The notes under the pieces were generated by a model. The model was not told where the DNA came from, did not search any database, and saw only the letters and a program-made list of their open reading frames with translations. Below are positions 179 through 10,742 of a DNA stretch of 64,000 nucleotides, piece after piece (position 1 is the first letter of the stretch; each line of letters opens with the position of its first letter). The DNA is taken from contig CAYJTG010000003.1 in the NCBI GenBank assembly GCA_964373255.1, forward strand, positions 25,759-89,758, read 5' to 3'. This DNA is from an uncultured archaeon. GTDB taxonomy: Archaea > Aenigmatarchaeota > Aenigmatarchaeia > GW2011-AR5. Both the position numbers and the translations under genes were made by a program.

Positions 179-1216
179 ATGTTTCAGTCGATTTGGAGGG
201 ATTTCATGGAACTGAAATATGAAAGAAATAACATATCAGACGTAAGCGACATCCAGCGACGATTCACCAATCCGGCACTCGCAGCCGTAGTATCGATAGA
301 AGCAGAACTTATGAAAGGCGCACGAAAGTACTTTGAAGAACAGAAATTCACAGAAGTTGTGGTGCCTCACATTACACGGGCAACAGGTGCGTGCGAGAAC
401 ATAGATACGATGTTTGGCATAAACTACTTTGGTGAAAGAGCCTATCTTGTGCAGACAGGACAGCTATATCTGGAGACGCTCATTCCAAAACTTGGCGGTG
501 TCTTCTGCATAGGACCAAGTTTCAGGGCAGAACCAGACGTGGATGAAAGGCACCTGACAGAATTTACTCTAATAGAATTTGAGCTGTCCTGCGACTTTTC
601 ACAGCTCTTGATTCATATAGAGAACACAATATACAGCATGGTTCACTCGGTATTGAAAAATAGGAAAGAAGAACTGGAATTATTAGGAACAGATACAGAA
701 CATCTAAAAAGAGCGACAGTCCCATTCAACAGAATAAAATATACAGATGCGATAAACCTGTTGAAGGAAGAGTTTAACGTAGAATGGGGTGATGACCTGA
801 AGAGCAACCATGAAAAATTTATCGTGCACGAGCTTGGTGACAGACCAACATTCATAACACATTATCCGGAGGCGATAAAGTTCTTCAACATGAAAAGAAA
901 CGAGGATAACGAAAAAATAGTCAACAGCGCAGACCTTATCTTGCCGTGCACCGGTGAAGCCGTCGGATCTGCGCAGCGCGAGCACGACTACGAACTTCTG
1001 TCAGGCAAGCTCAAAAAATCTAACATGCTGAAAATGCTGGAGGAACGGGGCGGCTCGATAGAGGATTTTAGATGGTACCTAGATTTTATCAGGAACAACG
1101 GGATTCAGCACTCTGGTTGTGGCATAGGTCTGAATCGCGTAACGCAATTCGTGCTGGCAAGCGGCGACATAAGAACAACAACAGCGTACCCGATGAACAG
1201 GGTGTCGCTGATGTAA
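179..1216 (+). CDS. Archaeal asparagine synthetase A-like protein. Class II aminoacyl-tRNA-synthetase catalytic core (AsnRS/AspRS-like) with no anticodon-binding domain.
   Basis: The 345-aa ORF shows class II aaRS motifs (FRAEP motif 2-like; GxGxGxxR-like 'GCGIGLNRV' motif 3). It has no N-terminal OB anticodon domain. A more likely start is the Met at about 206 (MELKYER). Confidence 0.6.
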   Translation: MFQSIWRDFMELKYERNNISDVSDIQRRFTNPALAAVVSIEAELMKGARKYFEEQKFTEVVVPHITRATGACENIDTMFGINYFGERAYLVQTGQLYLETLIPKLGGVFCIGPSFRAEPDVDERHLTEFTLIEFELSCDFSQLLIHIENTIYSMVHSVLKNRKEELELLGTDTEHLKRATVPFNRIKYTDAINLLKEEFNVEWGDDLKSNHEKFIVHELGDRPTFITHYPEAIKFFNMKRNEDNEKIVNSADLILPCTGEAVGSAQREHDYELLSGKLKKSNMLKMLEERGGSIEDFRWYLDFIRNNGIQHSGCGIGLNRVTQFVLASGDIRTTTAYPMNRVSLM

Positions 1217-3573: not shown

Positions 3574-5868
3574 TTGGTGTTTTTTATGCCCAACAATGAG
3601 AAAGAAGACGAAGCCATGCTGAAGGTCGGCGAATTGACAGAGCGTGGCGACTTCGGCCGTGGCATTGCTAGAATATCTGCAAAGGACATGAAAAAAATAG
3701 GCGTCAGCGAAGGCGATGTCATTGAGATGGAAGGCAAAAGAAAGACCGGTGCCATAGCTGTCCGTGCTTATCCTGTTGACGTTGGTCTCGATGTCGTGAG
3801 AATGGATGGACTTGCCAGAAGGAACTGTGGTGCAGGCATTGGTGAGATTGTTAAAATAAGAAAGTCCGATGTGAAGGAAGCAAAATCCGTGACTATTGCA
3901 CCGGCTCGCAAAGGCATAATAATTCACATGGGCGGAAACCTGCTGAAACAGAACCTTCTGATGAGACCACTAGCTACGGGCGACATCATAATTCCTAATC
4001 CTATTGTACAGGATCGGAGGTCACAGACAACACTATTTGAGCAGTTCTTTGGCGTCGATTTCGGCGATTTTCTATTTACACCATTCGGCGAAGAGAAGTT
4101 CGCTGTTGTGAGCACCGAGCCAAAAGGTATTGTGCGCGTGACAAGGTCGACAGACGTTGAGCTGCTGCCACAGGCTACAAGGCCCATGGAGGAAGAGAAG
4201 ATCCCCGAGGTCACATACGAAGATTTGGGCGGGCTGCACGAGGAGATAAAAAAGGTTCGCGAAATGATTGAGCTGCCGTTGAAGCACCCTGAGCTCTTTG
4301 AACGTCTTGGTATCGAGCCGCCTAGGGGTATTCTATTACACGGCCCGCCAGGAACCGGCAAGACACTTTTGGCAAAGGCTGTTGCAAATGAGAGCGGCGC
4401 GAAATTTTTTGTTATTAATGGTCCGGAGGTAATGTCAAAATTTTACGGCGAGTCGGAGGAAAATCTTCGTAAGATATTTGAGCAGGGTGAAAAAAATGCG
4501 CCGAGCATAATTTTTATCGATGAAATAGACTCCATCGCGCCTAAGCGCGAGGAAGTCAAGGGCGAGGTTGAGAAAAGAGTTGTTTCACAGCTGCTCACGC
4601 TTCTGGACGGATTGAAATCCCGTGGAAAAATAATTGTCATCGGCGCGACAAACATACCGAATTCGATCGACCCCGCACTAAGAAGGCCGGGACGATTTGA
4701 CCGTGAAATTGAATTAGGCGTGCCCAACAAGGACGGAAGAAAGGAGATTTTGCAGATCCACACAAGGGGCATGCCGCTCGCAAAGAACGTCGAGCTTGAT
4801 AAAATATCTGAAATAACTTATGGCTATGTTGGTGCAGACCTTGCGGCGTTGAGCAAGGAAGCTGCGATGCACGCCCTCAGGCGCGTATTGCCGGACGTAA
4901 GCGCCATAAAAGATGACAAACCAATACCCATAGACATACTAAAAAAGCTCATTGTAACAAAAGAGGATTTTGACCACGCACTAAAGATTGTTGAGCCTTC
5001 TGCGATGAGAGAAGTACTTATCGAGATACCCAACGTAAAGTGGGATGACATAGGCGGACTGGAAGACGTCAAGAAGCTGTTAAAAGAAACCATTGAGTGG
5101 CCGCTTAAATATCCTGATTCGTACGTAAGACTGGGTATAAAACCACCCGCGGGCGTACTTTTATACGGGCCTCCCGGAACTGGAAAGACACTCCTTGCAA
5201 AAGCCGTGGCTAATGAAAGCGGCGCCAACTTTATTTCTGTTAAAGGGCCTGAACTTTTGTCCATGTACGTAGGCGAGAGTGAAAAGCACGTTCGTGAGGT
5301 TTTCAGGCGTGCAAAGCAGGTTGCACCCTGCGTAATATTTCTTGACGAAGTTGATTCTCTTGTACCAAGAAGAGGTACGTCGAACGACAGCCATGTAACT
5401 GAACGTGTTGTTTCGCAGCTCTTGGCAGAGATGTCAGGACTGGAAGATTTGCACGGTGTTATAGTTATCGCTGCGACGAATCGGCCTGACATTATAGACC
5501 CTGCGCTTCTAAGACCAGGTCGGCTAGACAGGCAGATACTTGTCCATACCCCTGACGATGCTGCAAGGCTGGAAATATTCAGGGTGCACACAAAATCTAT
5601 GCCACTTGCTTCTGATGTAGATATAAACGACGTAACAAGCCAAACAAAGGGCTTTTCAGGCGCAGACATAGAAGCCGTATGTCGTGAGGCTGCGTTGTTT
5701 GCGATGAGAAAAAACATAAGCACAGAGCAGGTAACAAGAAAAGATTTCGAACAGGCGCTGAAAGAAGTGAAGCCGTCTCTTACCGAAGAGATGAACCAGT
5801 TCTACGAGAGCATACTGAAGAAGAAAAAATCGCGCGTCATCGAGGAAGAAGTAAACTACATGGGATAA
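3574..5868 (+). CDS. cdc48: AAA+ ATPase Cdc48 / VAT (VCP-like ATPase). N-domain followed by tandem D1 and D2 AAA modules.
   Basis: Two Walker A motifs (GPPGTGKT, twice). Walker B DEID and DEVD. Both SRH regions present. 764 aa. Start possibly at about 3586 (MPNNEK). Confidence 0.92.
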
Positions 5869-5944: not shown

Positions 5945-6082
5945 ATGAAGTGCATGGTTTGCGAAAGGTCGACACTGTTTACTTATAAGATTCAAGACGT
6001 AGAGGCAGCTTTCTGCCCTGAACATTTGCCTAAACAGATGCAGAAAATCATGATAAAGATTGTAGCGTGCCACAGATTATAA
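5945..6082 (+). CDS. Possible small Zn-ribbon protein, 45 aa, with CxxC...CxxH.
   Basis: ATG at 5945, stop TAA at 6080-6082. Translation: MKCMVCERSTLFTYKIQDVEAAFCPEHLPKQ... It is below the 60-aa cutoff of the ORF track. Confidence 0.25.
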   Translation: MKCMVCERSTLFTYKIQDVEAAFCPEHLPKQMQKIMIKIVACHRL

Positions 6083-6148: not shown

Positions 6149-6682
6149 CTAACCTTTGTGGTACTTCCCCCAGACTTCGACAAACTTCACAAAGTTGTCT
6201 ATTATTTTGAGCCCGTCGCCGCCTGATTCTGGATTGAAGTGGACGCCGAAAAAGGGCTTTTTGGCCTCGCCGATTATTTTGAATTTATACTTTGAAGAAG
6301 AAGCAATGACACTAAAGTTATCTGGGACCTCATCGAATGCATGTGTGCTGTTTTGAATTACGGTAAAAACACGCTTTAAATCGAGAGTCAGTGGGCATGG
6401 GTGTTCTATCTTTACATGATCTGACTTTTCGAATTTGCCTTCTCTGGCTTTGGCACCGTAAGCCACACCAAGAAAAACATATCCGGCACCAATACCAAGC
6501 AGGGGCTTGTTTATTTTCTCAATAATTTTCATATTATCTTTCAAATGTTTCATATTGCCGTCGGAAAGAATAAACCCACCGGCCTTAGCATTCAGGGCGT
6601 CCTTCGGCTTCATGATTTCCTTCTGGCCGCGCACAAATCTTTCGACGTCAGCGCCTTTTCCATTATCAACAATTACAATCAT
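6149..6682 (-). CDS. Class I glutamine-amidotransferase-like protein resembling GMP synthase subunit A. The catalytic Cys and its neighbouring His are substituted, so it is a predicted pseudo-amidotransferase.
   Basis: N-terminal 'MIVIVDNG' and C-terminal 'FGVHFNPE' match the GuaA-A fold. The nucleophile elbow reads 'LLGIGAGYVFLG', where canonical GuaA-A has 'ILGICLGHQLI'. That is Cys to Gly and His to Tyr. Confidence 0.65.
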   Translation of the reverse strand: MIVIVDNGKGADVERFVRGQKEIMKPKDALNAKAGGFILSDGNMKHLKDNMKIIEKINKPLLGIGAGYVFLGVAYGAKAREGKFEKSDHVKIEHPCPLTLDLKRVFTVIQNSTHAFDEVPDNFSVIASSSKYKFKIIGEAKKPFFGVHFNPESGGDGLKIIDNFVKFVEVWGKYHKG

Positions 6683-6745
6683 GAAATCATCTACTTTTTA
6701 TTAGTTAGCATAACCTTTTTATACATACTGTACGTCTTTTGCTGC

Positions 6746-7630
6746 CTATTTTGTCAGTATTATCGGCGGGTCGCTTATTATCAAAGTGTGTTCGGCCTGC
6801 GACACCATGCCGCCCTTTATCTCGCGCAGCACATTGTAGTCGTGAACAATACCGCGCTCTCTCAGTTCGCGAAGTGCTATCCTTACCTTGAATAATGAAT
6901 CTATCGGTATCCAACGCTCGGCGAAAGGCAGGCCGTTAAATGAATCGGCAAAATCTATTATCTTTCTTGCATCTGGATTTCTTACTGGCCTTTTTTCTAT
7001 TAGTGAGAATATGAAAACATTCTCAGAATCTTTTACAGCACCGCCGCCGTCAGTGGCAAATGGCTCTATGGCGATTACCTGGTTTTCTTTCAAACGGTAA
7101 TTGCTGCTGAAAGAAACGTTTGGAATGGTCGGTTCTGTGTGCAGGTCGTAGCGATTTATGCCGTGCCCTGTCAGATTGCTGACAGGTTTGAATCCGAAAC
7201 CTTTTATTGTCTCTTCTATTGTGAGCGCTATATCAGAAATCAGGATGTCTGGCACTGCTATTTTGACTGCTTCTTCCAGAGCCGTCTCTGCTGCTTTCAC
7301 CAAATCATCGTAGTCTTTGTTAAAATTTATCGTAACCGCCGTATCTCCAACGTAACCATCTACGTGGACGCCAACGTCAAGTTTCACTATACTGTTTTCC
7401 TTTATCACGTCGGTATCGTTTTTGGTCGGTGTGTGGTGTGCGGCTATATCGTTTATGGAGATGTTCACAGGAAAAGCCGGCTCCCCGCCTTTCTCTCGTA
7501 TGAGCGCCTCTATTTTTTCAGCGATATCAATTAGTCTTTCATTAACATCTACTATATTCCTGCTCGTCTCTCTGACTTCGGCGGCTATCTTGCCAGCCTT
7601 AATGTACTTTTCCATCACGTCTTTTTCCAT
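6746..7630 (-). CDS. map: Methionine aminopeptidase, type 2 (archaeal/eukaryotic type).
   Basis: 294 aa. The pita-bread fold metal ligand pattern is present (D..D..H..E..E context: 'VHVDGYVGDTA', 'HGINRYDLHTEP', 'IAIEPF'). Confidence 0.88.
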   Translation of the reverse strand: MEKDVMEKYIKAGKIAAEVRETSRNIVDVNERLIDIAEKIEALIREKGGEPAFPVNISINDIAAHHTPTKNDTDVIKENSIVKLDVGVHVDGYVGDTAVTINFNKDYDDLVKAAETALEEAVKIAVPDILISDIALTIEETIKGFGFKPVSNLTGHGINRYDLHTEPTIPNVSFSSNYRLKENQVIAIEPFATDGGGAVKDSENVFIFSLIEKRPVRNPDARKIIDFADSFNGLPFAERWIPIDSLFKVRIALRELRERGIVHDYNVLREIKGGMVSQAEHTLIISDPPIILTK

Positions 7631-7663: not shown

Positions 7664-8917
7664 CTAATGCCGTGAGTTGATTAATTCTTGCAGATTTTTG
7701 TAACCGTCTTTTTTGATGTATTTTGAAACGCCTTTCATCATTTTTTGTGCCAGTCCTAATCCGTAAAACGTGTACGGCGTATAGCCTTCTATTGCGTCTG
7801 CGCCTTGCAGAAAAGTTTCATAAGCGTCCCTGCCGTCAGATATCCCGCCAGTCGCGAATATTATTGTTTCTGGAAACGCCTCTCTTGTATCTCTTACTGC
7901 CCTACGTCTGTACTTTCTTAGAAATCGCCCACTTTTGCCTGCAGTTGCATAACCCCATTTCTCTGCTGGGACATTTTCCTTTTGAACCATGTAAGTATTG
8001 ACTGCTGTAACACCATCACCACCGCCCTTCATCCAACCTTCAACAAGCCTTAGCCATTCTTGCCTGCCTTCTGGCTCGTAGGGTCCCATCTTTACCTGTA
8101 ATAATTTATTTTTTATATATTTTCTTATCATTCTTGCATATTTCTCAAAAATATCTGGCCTGCGAAGCATTGACAGGGACTTCGTATTTGGTGAGAACGG
8201 GTTATACTCAAAGCCAGCTGCGTATGGATTAAAATCGTGAACAAGCACTTCAGCATCATTGTACGCATTCTCGAGCGCATTTTCTATTTCTGTATCTGGT
8301 ATATCTGCGAATTCTTTGTAGCGTATGATATTGGCAGTAGATTCTATTATCACCCTGTTTTTGTTTGGAGCAAAAGAATTTTTACCTTCTTCCTTAATAA
8401 CGTACGGCAAACCACATATGTTTGCAATTATAGGTTTTTTGGGTGCTTCTGAACTCTGATATTTGTTGAGGTTCTTTAGAGCATGGTCTTCACCCATAGA
8501 AGGAAAGCCTTGTGCATTGTATGCATTTTTATTTTTTACATCAACCGCAACCCTTGGTCTGTCATTGCCATCTCTTCTGTCAATTACAAATGTTCCCTTT
8601 GTAAGAAATCCAAATATATAAGAGAGCGGAATAATGGCATCTGCGTTCTTGTCCAAGCCCGCCGCAGTACCGAATGGCTGCATTCTTATGCCTTTGACAT
8701 CAACGGCAAGTTCTGGAAAATCAAAACAACTATTGTGAGCATCTATGACATTTGAATATTTACTGAGCATTTGTAATGCATGTTCATGAACCGCTTCCGG
8801 ATCTTTGTATCTTCTGTAAAGTTCCTTGCGCACAAAATTCTTGAAGAACCAAGGGCTGTGCAGAGAAATATGCATGCCTAGTTTTTCTATTGTCGTGCGC
8901 ATATTTGTAAAATTCAA
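7664..8917 (-). CDS. pyrD: Dihydroorotate dehydrogenase, class 2-like.
   Basis: N-terminal 'FVRKELYRRYKDPEAVHEHA' and 'FGTAAGLDKNADAI...RPRV' match class-2 DHODH. The Ser-containing 'NPFSPNT' is present. C-terminal 'IFATGGISDGRDAYETFLQGADAIEGYTPYTFYG' is the FMN-binding end. The middle region is divergent. Confidence 0.6.
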   Translation of the reverse strand: MNFTNMRTTIEKLGMHISLHSPWFFKNFVRKELYRRYKDPEAVHEHALQMLSKYSNVIDAHNSCFDFPELAVDVKGIRMQPFGTAAGLDKNADAIIPLSYIFGFLTKGTFVIDRRDGNDRPRVAVDVKNKNAYNAQGFPSMGEDHALKNLNKYQSSEAPKKPIIANICGLPYVIKEEGKNSFAPNKNRVIIESTANIIRYKEFADIPDTEIENALENAYNDAEVLVHDFNPYAAGFEYNPFSPNTKSLSMLRRPDIFEKYARMIRKYIKNKLLQVKMGPYEPEGRQEWLRLVEGWMKGGGDGVTAVNTYMVQKENVPAEKWGYATAGKSGRFLRKYRRRAVRDTREAFPETIIFATGGISDGRDAYETFLQGADAIEGYTPYTFYGLGLAQKMMKGVSKYIKKDGYKNLQELINSRH

Positions 8918-9031: not shown

Positions 9032-10054
9032 GTGACAACAATTCCTAGAAATTTTGCCGACAGACTTCTTGATGCAATAGATGAAAGACGGAACCCGAGT
9101 TGTGTAGGTCTTGATCCAACAATAACTGATATACCTGATCACATGAAACGTGCTGTAATTGAAGACTATAAAGTATACGAAATAGATCCTTACGAAAGAT
9201 TAGAAGTTCTATTTCAGGCGACCGGTGAAGTTCTGTTCAGATTCAATAAGGCTATAATTGATGCAACCCACGATATTGTTCCTGTATTCAAACCGAACAT
9301 TGCATTTTACGAATGCTATGGGCCTGAAGGCGAAAAGGCATTCTTAAGAACTTTAGAATACATAAAACAAAAAGGCACACTTGTAATAGCCGACGTGAAA
9401 AGAGAGGACATAGGAAAAACTGCAGGCTTCTACTCAAAAGGCTTTTTAGGAACTGTTGAGCTTATCGACGGAACTTCTATTTCTACTTTCAATGCAGATG
9501 CTGTTACATTAAGTCCTTACGTAGGTTCAGACAGCATTGGCGAATTTACAAAGGTTTGTGCAGAACATGGAAAAGGTGCATTTGTTCTTGACAAAACGTC
9601 CAATCCTTCTTCTGGCGAGTTGCAGGACATGAAATTTGATGATCGACACGGTGGAAGATTGATGTATGAACAGATGGCACTCCTAATAGATCAGTGGGGG
9701 CAACAGCTTAAGGGTGAGAGAGGTTACACATCGTTGGGCGCCGTAGTAGGCGCAATCTATCCAGAACCAGCAGCAAGATGTAGGGAAATGATGGAAAATG
9801 CTTTTATTCTTGTTCCAGCTTATGGAGCGCAAGGTGGCAAAGGCAAGGACACAATACCAAATTTCAATGAAGACGGTTACGGTGCTATTGTAAATAATGC
9901 TAGCAAACTAATATTTGCATACAAGGATGATCTATACAGACCAAAATTCAGTCCAGCCGAATTTGCTAAAGCAGCAAGAGAATCTGCTCTTGTAATGCGA
10001 GAAGACATAGTTGGTGCAATGCGTTCTTCTGGTCGAATACCTTCTGGGTGGTAG
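9032..10054 (+). CDS. pyrF: Orotidine-5'-phosphate decarboxylase, long type-2 form.
   Basis: 'NPSCVGLDPT' followed by 'VIADVKREDIGKTA', the OMPDC type-2 signature. 340 aa. Confidence 0.75.
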   Translation: MTTIPRNFADRLLDAIDERRNPSCVGLDPTITDIPDHMKRAVIEDYKVYEIDPYERLEVLFQATGEVLFRFNKAIIDATHDIVPVFKPNIAFYECYGPEGEKAFLRTLEYIKQKGTLVIADVKREDIGKTAGFYSKGFLGTVELIDGTSISTFNADAVTLSPYVGSDSIGEFTKVCAEHGKGAFVLDKTSNPSSGELQDMKFDDRHGGRLMYEQMALLIDQWGQQLKGERGYTSLGAVVGAIYPEPAARCREMMENAFILVPAYGAQGGKGKDTIPNFNEDGYGAIVNNASKLIFAYKDDLYRPKFSPAEFAKAARESALVMREDIVGAMRSSGRIPSGW

Positions 10055-10055
10055 A

Positions 10056-10742
10056 ATGATAAGTCTTGATCAGTACAACAAATTTTTACTCGACAATGAT
10101 CTTGTTGGCTTTTTTGATCCTTACATAACTTTAAAATCAGGGCGCCCTGGACATTGGTACGTAAATATGCGAGACGCTTTGAAAAATCTTAATCTAAAAC
10201 GCCAGTTAGCTATGTATATGTATGATCTTTGTGGCGAATTAGCACTAAAACCTGATTATTTCTTGGGTGTGCCTGATGGAGCAAAACCACTCGGCGAAGA
10301 GATGAATAATCTCATAAATTACAAAAAACCTTTTGAGATATCAGCAGCGGTTCTACGCGCTGGCAAAAAAGCTCATGGAGATCCGTTGAACAGATATTCA
10401 GTAGGACCACTTACACCGGGAAATCACGTAGTTCTTGTTGAAGACGTGACCACAACCGGCGGCTCTTCGATGGAATATATAATGCGCCTGCAGGAAATTG
10501 GTATATGGATCGATGCACTTGTTTCCTGCGTCAATCGCTTTGAACGTAGGGATCGTAAAAGAACGGTAGAAGATGTGTTGTTAAGAGATTATAATGTAAA
10601 ATATGCGGCAAGAACCGATGCAAGGACTCTCTTGCCTGCTGCCGTTAAGAAGTTTAACCCAAACGAAAAAATCATAACTGATATAGAAGCTTACTACAGA
10701 CAATATGGCGTTGAGCCAATAGAACTTCCTAAAGCTGCTTAA
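10056..10742 (+). CDS. pyrE: Orotate phosphoribosyltransferase.
   Basis: PRPP-binding motif 'VVLVEDVTTTGGS'. Start taken at the Met of MISLDQY, immediately after the pyrF stop. The ORF track begins at 10011, upstream and overlapping pyrF. Confidence 0.85.
   Translation: MISLDQYNKFLLDNDLVGFFDPYITLKSGRPGHWYVNMRDALKNLNLKRQLAMYMYDLCGELALKPDYFLGVPDGAKPLGEEMNNLINYKKPFEISAAVLRAGKKAHGDPLNRYSVGPLTPGNHVVLVEDVTTTGGSSMEYIMRLQEIGIWIDALVSCVNRFERRDRKRTVEDVLLRDYNVKYAARTDARTLLPAAVKKFNPNEKIITDIEAYYRQYGVEPIELPKAA

Follow-up and report, generated by a model that had tools for sequence, protein, structure and literature searches.

A Class I Amidotransferase Fold without a Catalytic Triad

The stretch of DNA analyzed here, a 64-kb window of contig CAYJTG010000003.1 from an uncultured archaeon of the Aenigmatarchaeota (assembly GCA_964373255.1), carries on its minus strand, at positions 6149–6682, an intact open reading frame (ORF) with an ATG start that encodes a stand-alone protein of 177 amino acids. 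On the evidence of the ORF, Pfam, an AlphaFold2 model, Foldseek, and 97 homologs, this protein, which we designate psGAT, has the fold of a class I glutamine amidotransferase (GATase) and no catalytic triad. It is preceded on the same strand by a pyrD-like gene and then by map, the gene of a methionine aminopeptidase (MetAP), with pyrF and then pyrE lying on the plus strand.

With 44 bits on the Pfam GATase model PF00117 (gathering score 22.8), psGAT falls within the class I glutamine amidotransferase homology family. The best NCBIfam models are the equivalogs for subunit A of GMP synthase (GuaA-A), NF001975 and TIGR00888; because the scores on these, 56.6 bits (cut-off 198) and 56.2 bits (cut-off 172.15), lie far under the cut-offs, psGAT is a GuaA-A homolog that falls outside the GuaA-A family itself. 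The AlphaFold2 model, for which 59 family sequences were used, has high confidence (pLDDT 92.8, pTM 0.90), and Foldseek places it at a TM score of 0.86 and 25% identity to the GATase subunit of the Methanocaldococcus jannaschii GMP synthetase (7yc6, 7d97), which is the closest solved relative by both HMMER alignment and Foldseek. An initial annotation, made from the sequence of the window alone, had described a GuaA-A-like class I amidotransferase that matches GuaA-A end to end. The likeness is upheld by the Pfam score and the solved relative, and structure prediction, which that annotation had proposed for the active site, returned the class I GATase fold; the end-to-end match holds at the level of the fold and fails at the level of the family. 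We rejected an assignment as the small subunit of carbamoyl-phosphate synthetase (CPS), CarA, for which an N-terminal CPSase small-chain domain plus a GATase domain (~360–380 amino acids) and the presence of carB were taken as the criterion: psGAT has only 177 amino acids and scores 23 bits on the CarA models against cut-offs of 221–307.

In the HMMER alignment, L-G-I-G-A-G-Y of psGAT is paired with L-G-I-C-L-G-H of the M. jannaschii subunit, and G-V-H-F-N-P-E with G-V-Q-F-H-P-E. The catalytic Cys76 at the nucleophile elbow therefore corresponds to Gly65 (codon GGT, 6488–6490, minus strand), and the triad residue His163 to Asn150 (codon AAT, 6233–6235, minus strand). The loss of the cysteine, with G-I-G-A-G-Y in place of G-I-C-L-G-H, had been recognized in the initial annotation, which had also taken both the His and the Glu of the triad to be kept in the string HFNPE. 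This is true of the glutamate only: Glu152 (codon GAA, 6227–6229, minus strand; Glu165 in M. jannaschii) is the sole triad residue retained, being E in 107 of 110 family sequences, and the His of HFNPE occupies a column that is Gln in 85 of 86 canonical GATases.

The contrast between these 110 family sequences and 86 canonical GATases extends over the whole site. The cysteine column is Gly in 107 and Ala in 3 members of the family, against Cys in all canonical sequences, and the column of the triad His is Asn in 100, Cys in 4, and a few other residues in the remainder, never the His that all 86 canonical sequences carry. Asp41, in L-S-D-G (6560–6562, minus strand), stands in place of the oxyanion-strand Gly of the canonical S-G-G motif (D in 109/110, against G in 83/86). 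The glutamine-binding Gln past the elbow (Q69 of G-x-C-x-G-H-Q) has become Leu, Val, or Ile; the conserved, noncatalytic His just past the elbow has become Tyr or Ser; the conserved His of the canonical S-H motif (H112) is Cys or Gln; and the conserved His139 is Glu or Asp. Another residue of the pocket, His148, is conserved in the main clade (88/110). Judged from these alignments, the entire glutamine site is rebuilt in the psGAT family, well beyond a single residue.

Conservation and Selection

The 97 homologs mentioned above come from a search of 5.8 billion proteins; they have 41–100% identity, and all are 174–199 amino acids long. Their cysteine column is Gly in 94 and Ala in 3, and their histidine column is Asn in 89, Cys in 4, Ser in 3, and Leu in 1, so that neither catalytic residue occurs in any of them. 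Together with cluster representatives they form the family set of about 110 intact ORFs (170–203 amino acids), none of which has the triad Cys or His. The boundary of the family is sharp: when 1.84 billion cluster representatives were searched exhaustively with a profile, ~20 sequences carrying the family motifs fell below an E value of 1e-30, and canonical proteins with G-I-C and F-H-P-E began at ~1e-20.

Among the codons at position 65 in 35 distinct loci, GGC occurs 18 times, GGT 12, GGA 4, and GGG once, covering all four glycine codons, and codon 150 is AAC in 19 and AAT in 14; at both positions synonymous codons replace one another and the amino acid stays constant. The window's exact codon 65 is also found in two independent assemblies (loci L001 and L002). 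Ratios of nonsynonymous to synonymous substitution rates (dN/dS) range from 0.04 to 0.16, with 0.05, 0.12, 0.11, and 0.16 for the pairs with unsaturated dS, indicating purifying selection, and psGAT identity tracks MetAP identity from locus to locus. Two species-representative metagenome-assembled genomes (MAGs) have psGAT copies with in-frame stops or shortened matches (L036, 5700–6193; L038, 994–1364), which may be real pseudogenes in those lineages or errors of the MAGs or their assembly.

Distribution and Family-Specific Motifs

When one genome was scanned for each GTDB species, psGAT was found in 32 genomes, all of them Candidatus Aenigmatarchaeota or MAGs classified only as "archaeon", the other matches being unrelated bacterial proteins; the family thus appears specific to the Aenigmatarchaeota (DPANN). 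The nearest relatives of the psGAT in the window come from groundwater and lake-sediment MAGs (71–72% identity). The JGI annotation of psGAT proteins reads "GMP synthase-like glutamine amidotransferase" or "GMP synthase (glutamine-hydrolysing)", and our literature searches returned no description of the family. Two more distant proteins without the cysteine, P0214 and P0166, were set aside as independent losses in unrelated bacterial or biosynthetic contexts, and the gene contexts of the nearest canonical GATases (P0127 and P0118) were uninformative on the origin of psGAT.

The family is marked by motifs not found in canonical GATases: N-G-K-G-A after strand 1, R18, L-S-D-G, L-D-x-K at residues 100–103, F-G-V-H-F-N-P-E, and a C-terminal W-x-K-Y-H at residues 171–175 (6158–6172, minus strand), in which W is conserved in 106, K in 102, Y in 110, and H in 105 of the 110 sequences. 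The last of these closes an amphipathic helix, N-F-x-x-F-x-x-x-W-x-K-Y-H (158–175 in the AlphaFold2 model), which extends two to three turns beyond the canonical C-terminus, canonical GATases mostly stopping earlier; 0–5 variable residues trail the motif. The most divergent branch of the family (P0113–P0117) has lost D41, N150, and even E152, and retains P60, P143, G146, F149, N163, F164, F167, Y174, and H175, with W-x-K-Y-H kept even there. The most persistent part of the protein is therefore the core of the fold with the C-terminal helix, and not the old pocket.

From the topology of the flavodoxin-like fold, the last helix would pack beside helix 1, and the family-specific residues G10, A11, and R18 would form a single patch with F167, W171, Y174, and H175, at the edge that faces away from the old active site. 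An HbYX-type docking motif for the proteasome or CDC48 was considered for the C-terminus and rejected, the Tyr of K-Y-H being trailed by 1–6 residues and usually not penultimate; so was a basic, nucleic-acid-binding character, the family median isoelectric point of 8.8 being the same as that of canonical GATases.

Genomic Neighborhood

The constant neighbor of psGAT is the type II methionine aminopeptidase gene map (6746–7630, minus strand; TIGR00501, 324.7 bits, cut-off 222.65). In 38 of 39 loci this gene immediately precedes psGAT on the same strand, the median gap being 76 bp, and the arrangement extends to the most divergent members of the family. On its other side psGAT faces the convergent gene of the AAA ATPase CDC48 (3574–5868, plus strand; TIGR01243, 1082 bits), a frequent neighbor at variable distance. 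Both belong to a conserved block of an LTD protein, an MPE phosphoesterase, an Lhr helicase, a variable slot, MetAP, and psGAT, followed by convergent CDC48 and RadB.

The junctions of this block differ in their tightness. The known operon pair MPE–Lhr has a median gap of 13 bp, with 93% of gaps at 200 bp or less, and MetAP–psGAT one of 84 bp, with 83% of gaps within the same limit. The Lhr–MetAP junction has a median gap of 3193 bp (0% within 200 bp), psGAT–CDC48 one of 582 bp, reaching up to 8.3 kb (12%), and CDC48–RadB one of 964 bp (0%). As these other junctions are broken by kilobases and the MetAP–psGAT gaps are as tight as those of MPE–Lhr, the MetAP–psGAT pair is specifically preserved.

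The 63-bp spacer between map and psGAT holds a TATA-box-like octamer, ATAAAAAG (6715–6722, minus strand), 40 nt upstream of the psGAT start. In 29 of 35 loci a similar octamer (TTAAAAAG, ATATAAAG, TTATAAAG, or others) precedes the start by 26–44 nt, and in two loci where the gap is 7 bp the octamer falls inside the 3' end of map.

The initial annotation had placed psGAT just upstream of pyrimidine genes, which does not agree with the direction of transcription: psGAT is downstream of both pyrD and map. A pyrimidine link was rejected, as pyrD, pyrE, or pyrF stand beside psGAT in only ~9 of 34 distinct loci, a minority, where they fill the variable slot between Lhr and map. The dihydroorotate dehydrogenase (DHODH)-like pyrD of the window (7664–8917, minus strand; 417 amino acids; Pfam DHO_dh) is one such variable neighbor and scores below all NCBIfam cut-offs. 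Its protein matches models of the class 2 (quinone-dependent) DHODH in two separate stretches, again below every curated cut-off, which in so long a protein suggests an insertion or a divergent form. The type 2 pyrF (9032–10054, plus strand; 340 amino acids) and the pyrE-like ORF (10011–10742, plus strand) overlap by 44 nt. A GNAT acetyltransferase follows psGAT in L005 and in no other locus.

An unannotated ORF of 45 codons, MKCMVCERSTLFTYKIQDVEAAFCPEHLPKQMQKIMIKIVACHRL, lies at 5945–6082 on the plus strand, starting 76 nt downstream of CDC48 on the same strand and converging on psGAT; its product has a zinc-ribbon-like CxxC...CxxH pattern. By tblastn this miniprotein is present in at least 17 aenigmatarchaeal loci, always just after CDC48, including L007 (9065–9199), where there is a 4-nt overlap with the CDC48 stop, L009, L010–L013, L015–L017, L019, L025, L027, L031, L032, and L038; a role as a miniprotein or cofactor coupled to CDC48 is possible. 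The CDC48 ortholog of GCA_016187335.1 (L003, 3640–7878) has 1412 amino acids and contains an intein with a LAGLIDADG endonuclease inside its AAA domain.

Elsewhere in the window, the ORF at 179–1216 (plus strand) encodes a 345-amino-acid class II aminoacyl-tRNA synthetase catalytic core (tRNA-synt_2) without an N-terminal anticodon-binding domain. Its best matches are models of asparaginyl-tRNA synthetase (AsnRS) over model residues 127–451, below the cut-off, and this AsnRS- or asparagine-synthetase-A-like paralog belongs to the same syntenic block in L012, L017, L019, and L038. The region from ~16100 to ~49600 is a glycosylation and cell-surface cluster of more than 30 kb, with many GT2 and GT4 glycosyltransferases, NDP-sugar epimerases and dehydratases, methyltransferases, PMT-like mannosyltransferases, a Wzx-like flippase, and an STT3/AglB-like oligosaccharyltransferase.

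Search for a Synthetase Partner

No ATP-pyrophosphatase (ATP-PPase) gene and no second GATase was found in the 64-kb window, which agrees with the absence of an adjacent ATP-PPase subunit reported in the initial annotation. A tblastn search with two full-length GuaA proteins against 898 kb of DNA (the window and all fetched loci, bacterial ones included) gave no match to the ATP-PPase half; matches were confined to the GATase part, and almost all of them fell on psGAT itself. One extra match, 7 kb from psGAT in L014, is an intact CarA (G-I-C-L-G-N-Q and F-H-P-E-G) with CarB beside it. Where CPS occurs in the Aenigmatarchaeota, on the evidence of L014, it has a live glutaminase of its own, and psGAT is not its partner. 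Domain fusions gave no clue to a partner, the proteins with matches in several stretches (P0120, P0121, P0125, P0144, and P0225) proving to be unrelated tandem GATases or PabA–PabB-type proteins.

Published genome surveys bear on the same question. Most Aenigmarchaeota are reported to lack de novo synthesis of nucleotides (Li et al. 2021, PMC8407114), and IMP dehydrogenase is found in 2 of 23 of their genomes (PMC8407114). The AR5 genome has a count of zero for K01951 in the KO table of that study, and its contig JWKQ01000002 carries psGAT (L017). In the available part of the supplement, eight groundwater genomes have matches to K01951 whose sole annotation is "GATase domain" (arCOG00087), and the PP-ATPase arCOG is nowhere in that text; the tables there file K01951 "guaA" under purine salvage and flag arCOG00087 as horizontally transferred from Bacteroidetes (PMC8407114). 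These arCOG00087-only matches are probably members of the psGAT family, which would make their count as guaA an artifact of annotation.

Function of psGAT and Rival Explanations

From its residues and their conservation, psGAT is very probably a conserved pseudoenzyme without glutaminase activity. Gly at the nucleophile, Asn at the general base, Asp at the oxyanion Gly, and a hydrophobic residue at the glutamine-binding Gln would leave no thioester chemistry, since without an elbow nucleophile, a general base, and an oxyanion hole the thioester intermediate of class I enzymes could not form. Essential catalytic residues are missing and purifying selection acts across species, as expected of a pseudoenzyme, and the proposal of the initial annotation that the protein is one thus gains support from the replacement of all four of these residues together with strong selection. 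A small DPANN genome retains psGAT at a dN/dS near 0.1; psGAT therefore has a function.

Our best explanation, to which we give about an even chance, is that psGAT is a dead, apparently Aenigmatarchaeota-specific descendant of a GuaA-A-type protein that serves as a noncatalytic binding or adaptor protein; under this explanation it is probably not a subunit of GMP synthase, given that the 898 kb searched contain no ATP-PPase domain, nor is it one of CPS. What has been retained is a compact alpha/beta fold with an extended C-terminal amphipathic helix, and this helix, beside helix 1 (G10, A11, R18), would offer a new protein-binding surface. A regulatory or scaffold role is our best guess, in which psGAT would act as a noncatalytic adaptor tied to MetAP and hence to N-terminal protein maturation. 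The adjacency of the two genes across the phylum makes MetAP the only candidate partner that the data support, though a doubtful one. It is a good deal more speculative, and in our estimate rather improbable, that psGAT is an unrecognized cofactor, in archaea, for the N-terminal maturation or the quality control of proteins and binds MetAP or newly exposed N-termini; such a cofactor might modulate MetAP (for example its metal loading or ribosome targeting) or pass substrates to CDC48 and its zinc-ribbon miniprotein, and if this were true a pseudo-amidotransferase would have been turned into an N-terminal "reader" or adaptor.

Several observations weigh against an adaptor linked to MetAP. With a TATA-like element of its own in front of psGAT, map–psGAT is not demonstrably an operon, and given the block-wide synteny part of the MetAP–psGAT adjacency may be inherited gene order and not function. 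The absence of GuaA-B at the level of whole genomes is taken from the KO table of one paper together with local DNA. In the main clade, moreover, the residues of the pocket show catalytic-like conservation (D41 in 109, G65 in 107, H148 in 88, N150 in 100, and E152 in 107 of 110), and the high conservation of D41, H148, N150, and E152 fits a pocket that is still used better than it fits a pure scaffold. This conservation, like that of catalytic residues, is what speaks for neofunctionalization through a remodeled pocket (Asp41, His148, Asn150, Glu152, and often Cys96 and Cys112), by which psGAT would have become a sensor or carrier of a small molecule or metal, or a new non-thiol enzyme; several substitutions (G to D, Q to H, H to E or D, and H to C) add potential metal or polar ligands. 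The elbow has no nucleophile, however, no potentially catalytic residue is invariant across the family, and the divergent branch without D41, N150, and E152 retains the fold and the C-terminal motif and still stands directly behind MetAP, so that we regard this explanation as unlikely.

A further alternative would make psGAT a dead structural or allosteric subunit of an ammonia-using synthetase, be it GuaA-B or another PP-loop or amidotransferase synthetase, in the manner of CPS1. Its closest relatives are indeed GuaA-A subunits, retained dead GATase domains set a precedent (CPS1 chains are among the structural matches), and the same changes of Cys to Gly or Ala and of His to Asn are seen in full-length bacterial CarA homologs that presumably still partner CarB. 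We nevertheless hold it improbable: the 898 kb searched contain no ATP-PPase domain, psGAT is neither fused to a synthetase nor in a conserved neighborhood with one, and CPS, where present, has its own intact CarA. In the published data, AR5 carries psGAT and no K01951, 21 of 23 Aenigmarchaeota genomes lack IMP dehydrogenase, and the entries listed in the available part of the supplement are of the "GATase domain" arCOG00087 only, never of the PP-ATPase arCOG (PMC8407114). Finally, psGAT could be imagined as a decaying pseudogene, a strain-specific lesion, or an error of base calling at the cysteine codon, as the initial annotation had in part allowed; GGT and TGT differ by a single base, and L036 and L038 do have in-frame stops. 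The comparative data refute all three versions, to which we attach practically no probability. None of the ~110 intact ORFs has the Cys or the His and dN/dS stays at 0.04–0.16, which is not the pattern of a decaying gene; orthologs with the cysteine, as a lesion confined to one strain would imply, number 0 of 97 (0 of 110 with the cluster representatives), and the Cys-less form is conserved in relatives, with Gly or Ala in 110 of 110. The base calls likewise hold, given the same codon in L001 and L002 and the use of all four glycine codons across loci.

The psGAT family matters beyond the locus itself. DPANN genomes are tiny and strongly reduced, so a phylum-wide gene with a dN/dS near 0.1 serves something needed. 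If the arCOG00087 matches to K01951 are psGAT, purine salvage has been over-called in the Aenigmatarchaeota, which otherwise lack nucleotide synthesis. The protein is also a concrete and cheap target for a new noncatalytic use of the GATase fold.

Comparison with Known Systems

Among the families compared, GuaA-A (the M. jannaschii GATase; PDB 2lxn, 7d40, 7yc6) is the best sequence match, and like psGAT it is a stand-alone class I GATase fold of ~180 amino acids. The two have in common the N-terminal D-N-G, P60, the P-E of the His-Pro-Glu loop, and the N-F of the last helix. Unlike GuaA-A, psGAT lacks the Cys, the His, the oxyanion Gly, and the glutamine-binding Gln, bears the W-x-K-Y-H extension, and is linked to map, with no GuaA-B partner in the 898 kb searched.

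The GATase-like domain of the ammonia-dependent CPS1 (PDB 5dot, 6uel) is inactive. It resembles psGAT in that a class I GATase fold has been retained under selection while its glutaminase chemistry was lost; the CPS1 domain, however, forms one chain with its synthetase and plays a known structural or allosteric role, whereas psGAT is free-standing with no synthetase nearby. Herpesviral vGATs are homologs of the formylglycinamide ribonucleotide (FGAR) amidotransferase, viral and far larger proteins that are unrelated to psGAT in lineage and context. These vGAT pseudoenzymes are described, in the part of the source available, as enzyme-dead amidotransferase homologs that work by protein–protein interaction (PMC7605207). 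As in the CPS1 domain and the vGATs, psGAT would have lost catalysis with the fold retained.

The substitutions themselves find their closest parallel in bacterial CarA homologs that lack the same Cys and His, with G-I-G/A-L-G and F-G-V-Q-F-N-P-E at the same two positions. Unlike psGAT these are bacterial two-domain proteins of ~361 amino acids, of independent origin and presumably with CarB partners. They are found in MAGs of Oscillospiraceae, Acutalibacteraceae, Erysipelotrichaceae, and Clostridia (L039–L053), with F-G-I-G-L-G-N or F-G-I-A-L-G-H at the elbow, and probably represent a convergently silenced glutaminase in the CPS of gut Clostridia, as far as sequence comparison can indicate. 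A 192-amino-acid HisH-like protein from the Ignavibacteriaceae (L054) also has G-I-G-A-G and F-N-P-E. The recurrence of the pair of changes, Cys to Gly and His to Asn, in the unrelated bacterial CarA suggests a preferred mutational route by which class I amidotransferases are silenced with their fold kept. From the known retained dead amidotransferase folds psGAT differs in being free-standing, archaeal, phylum-wide, equipped with a new C-terminal motif, and linked to map instead of a synthetase.

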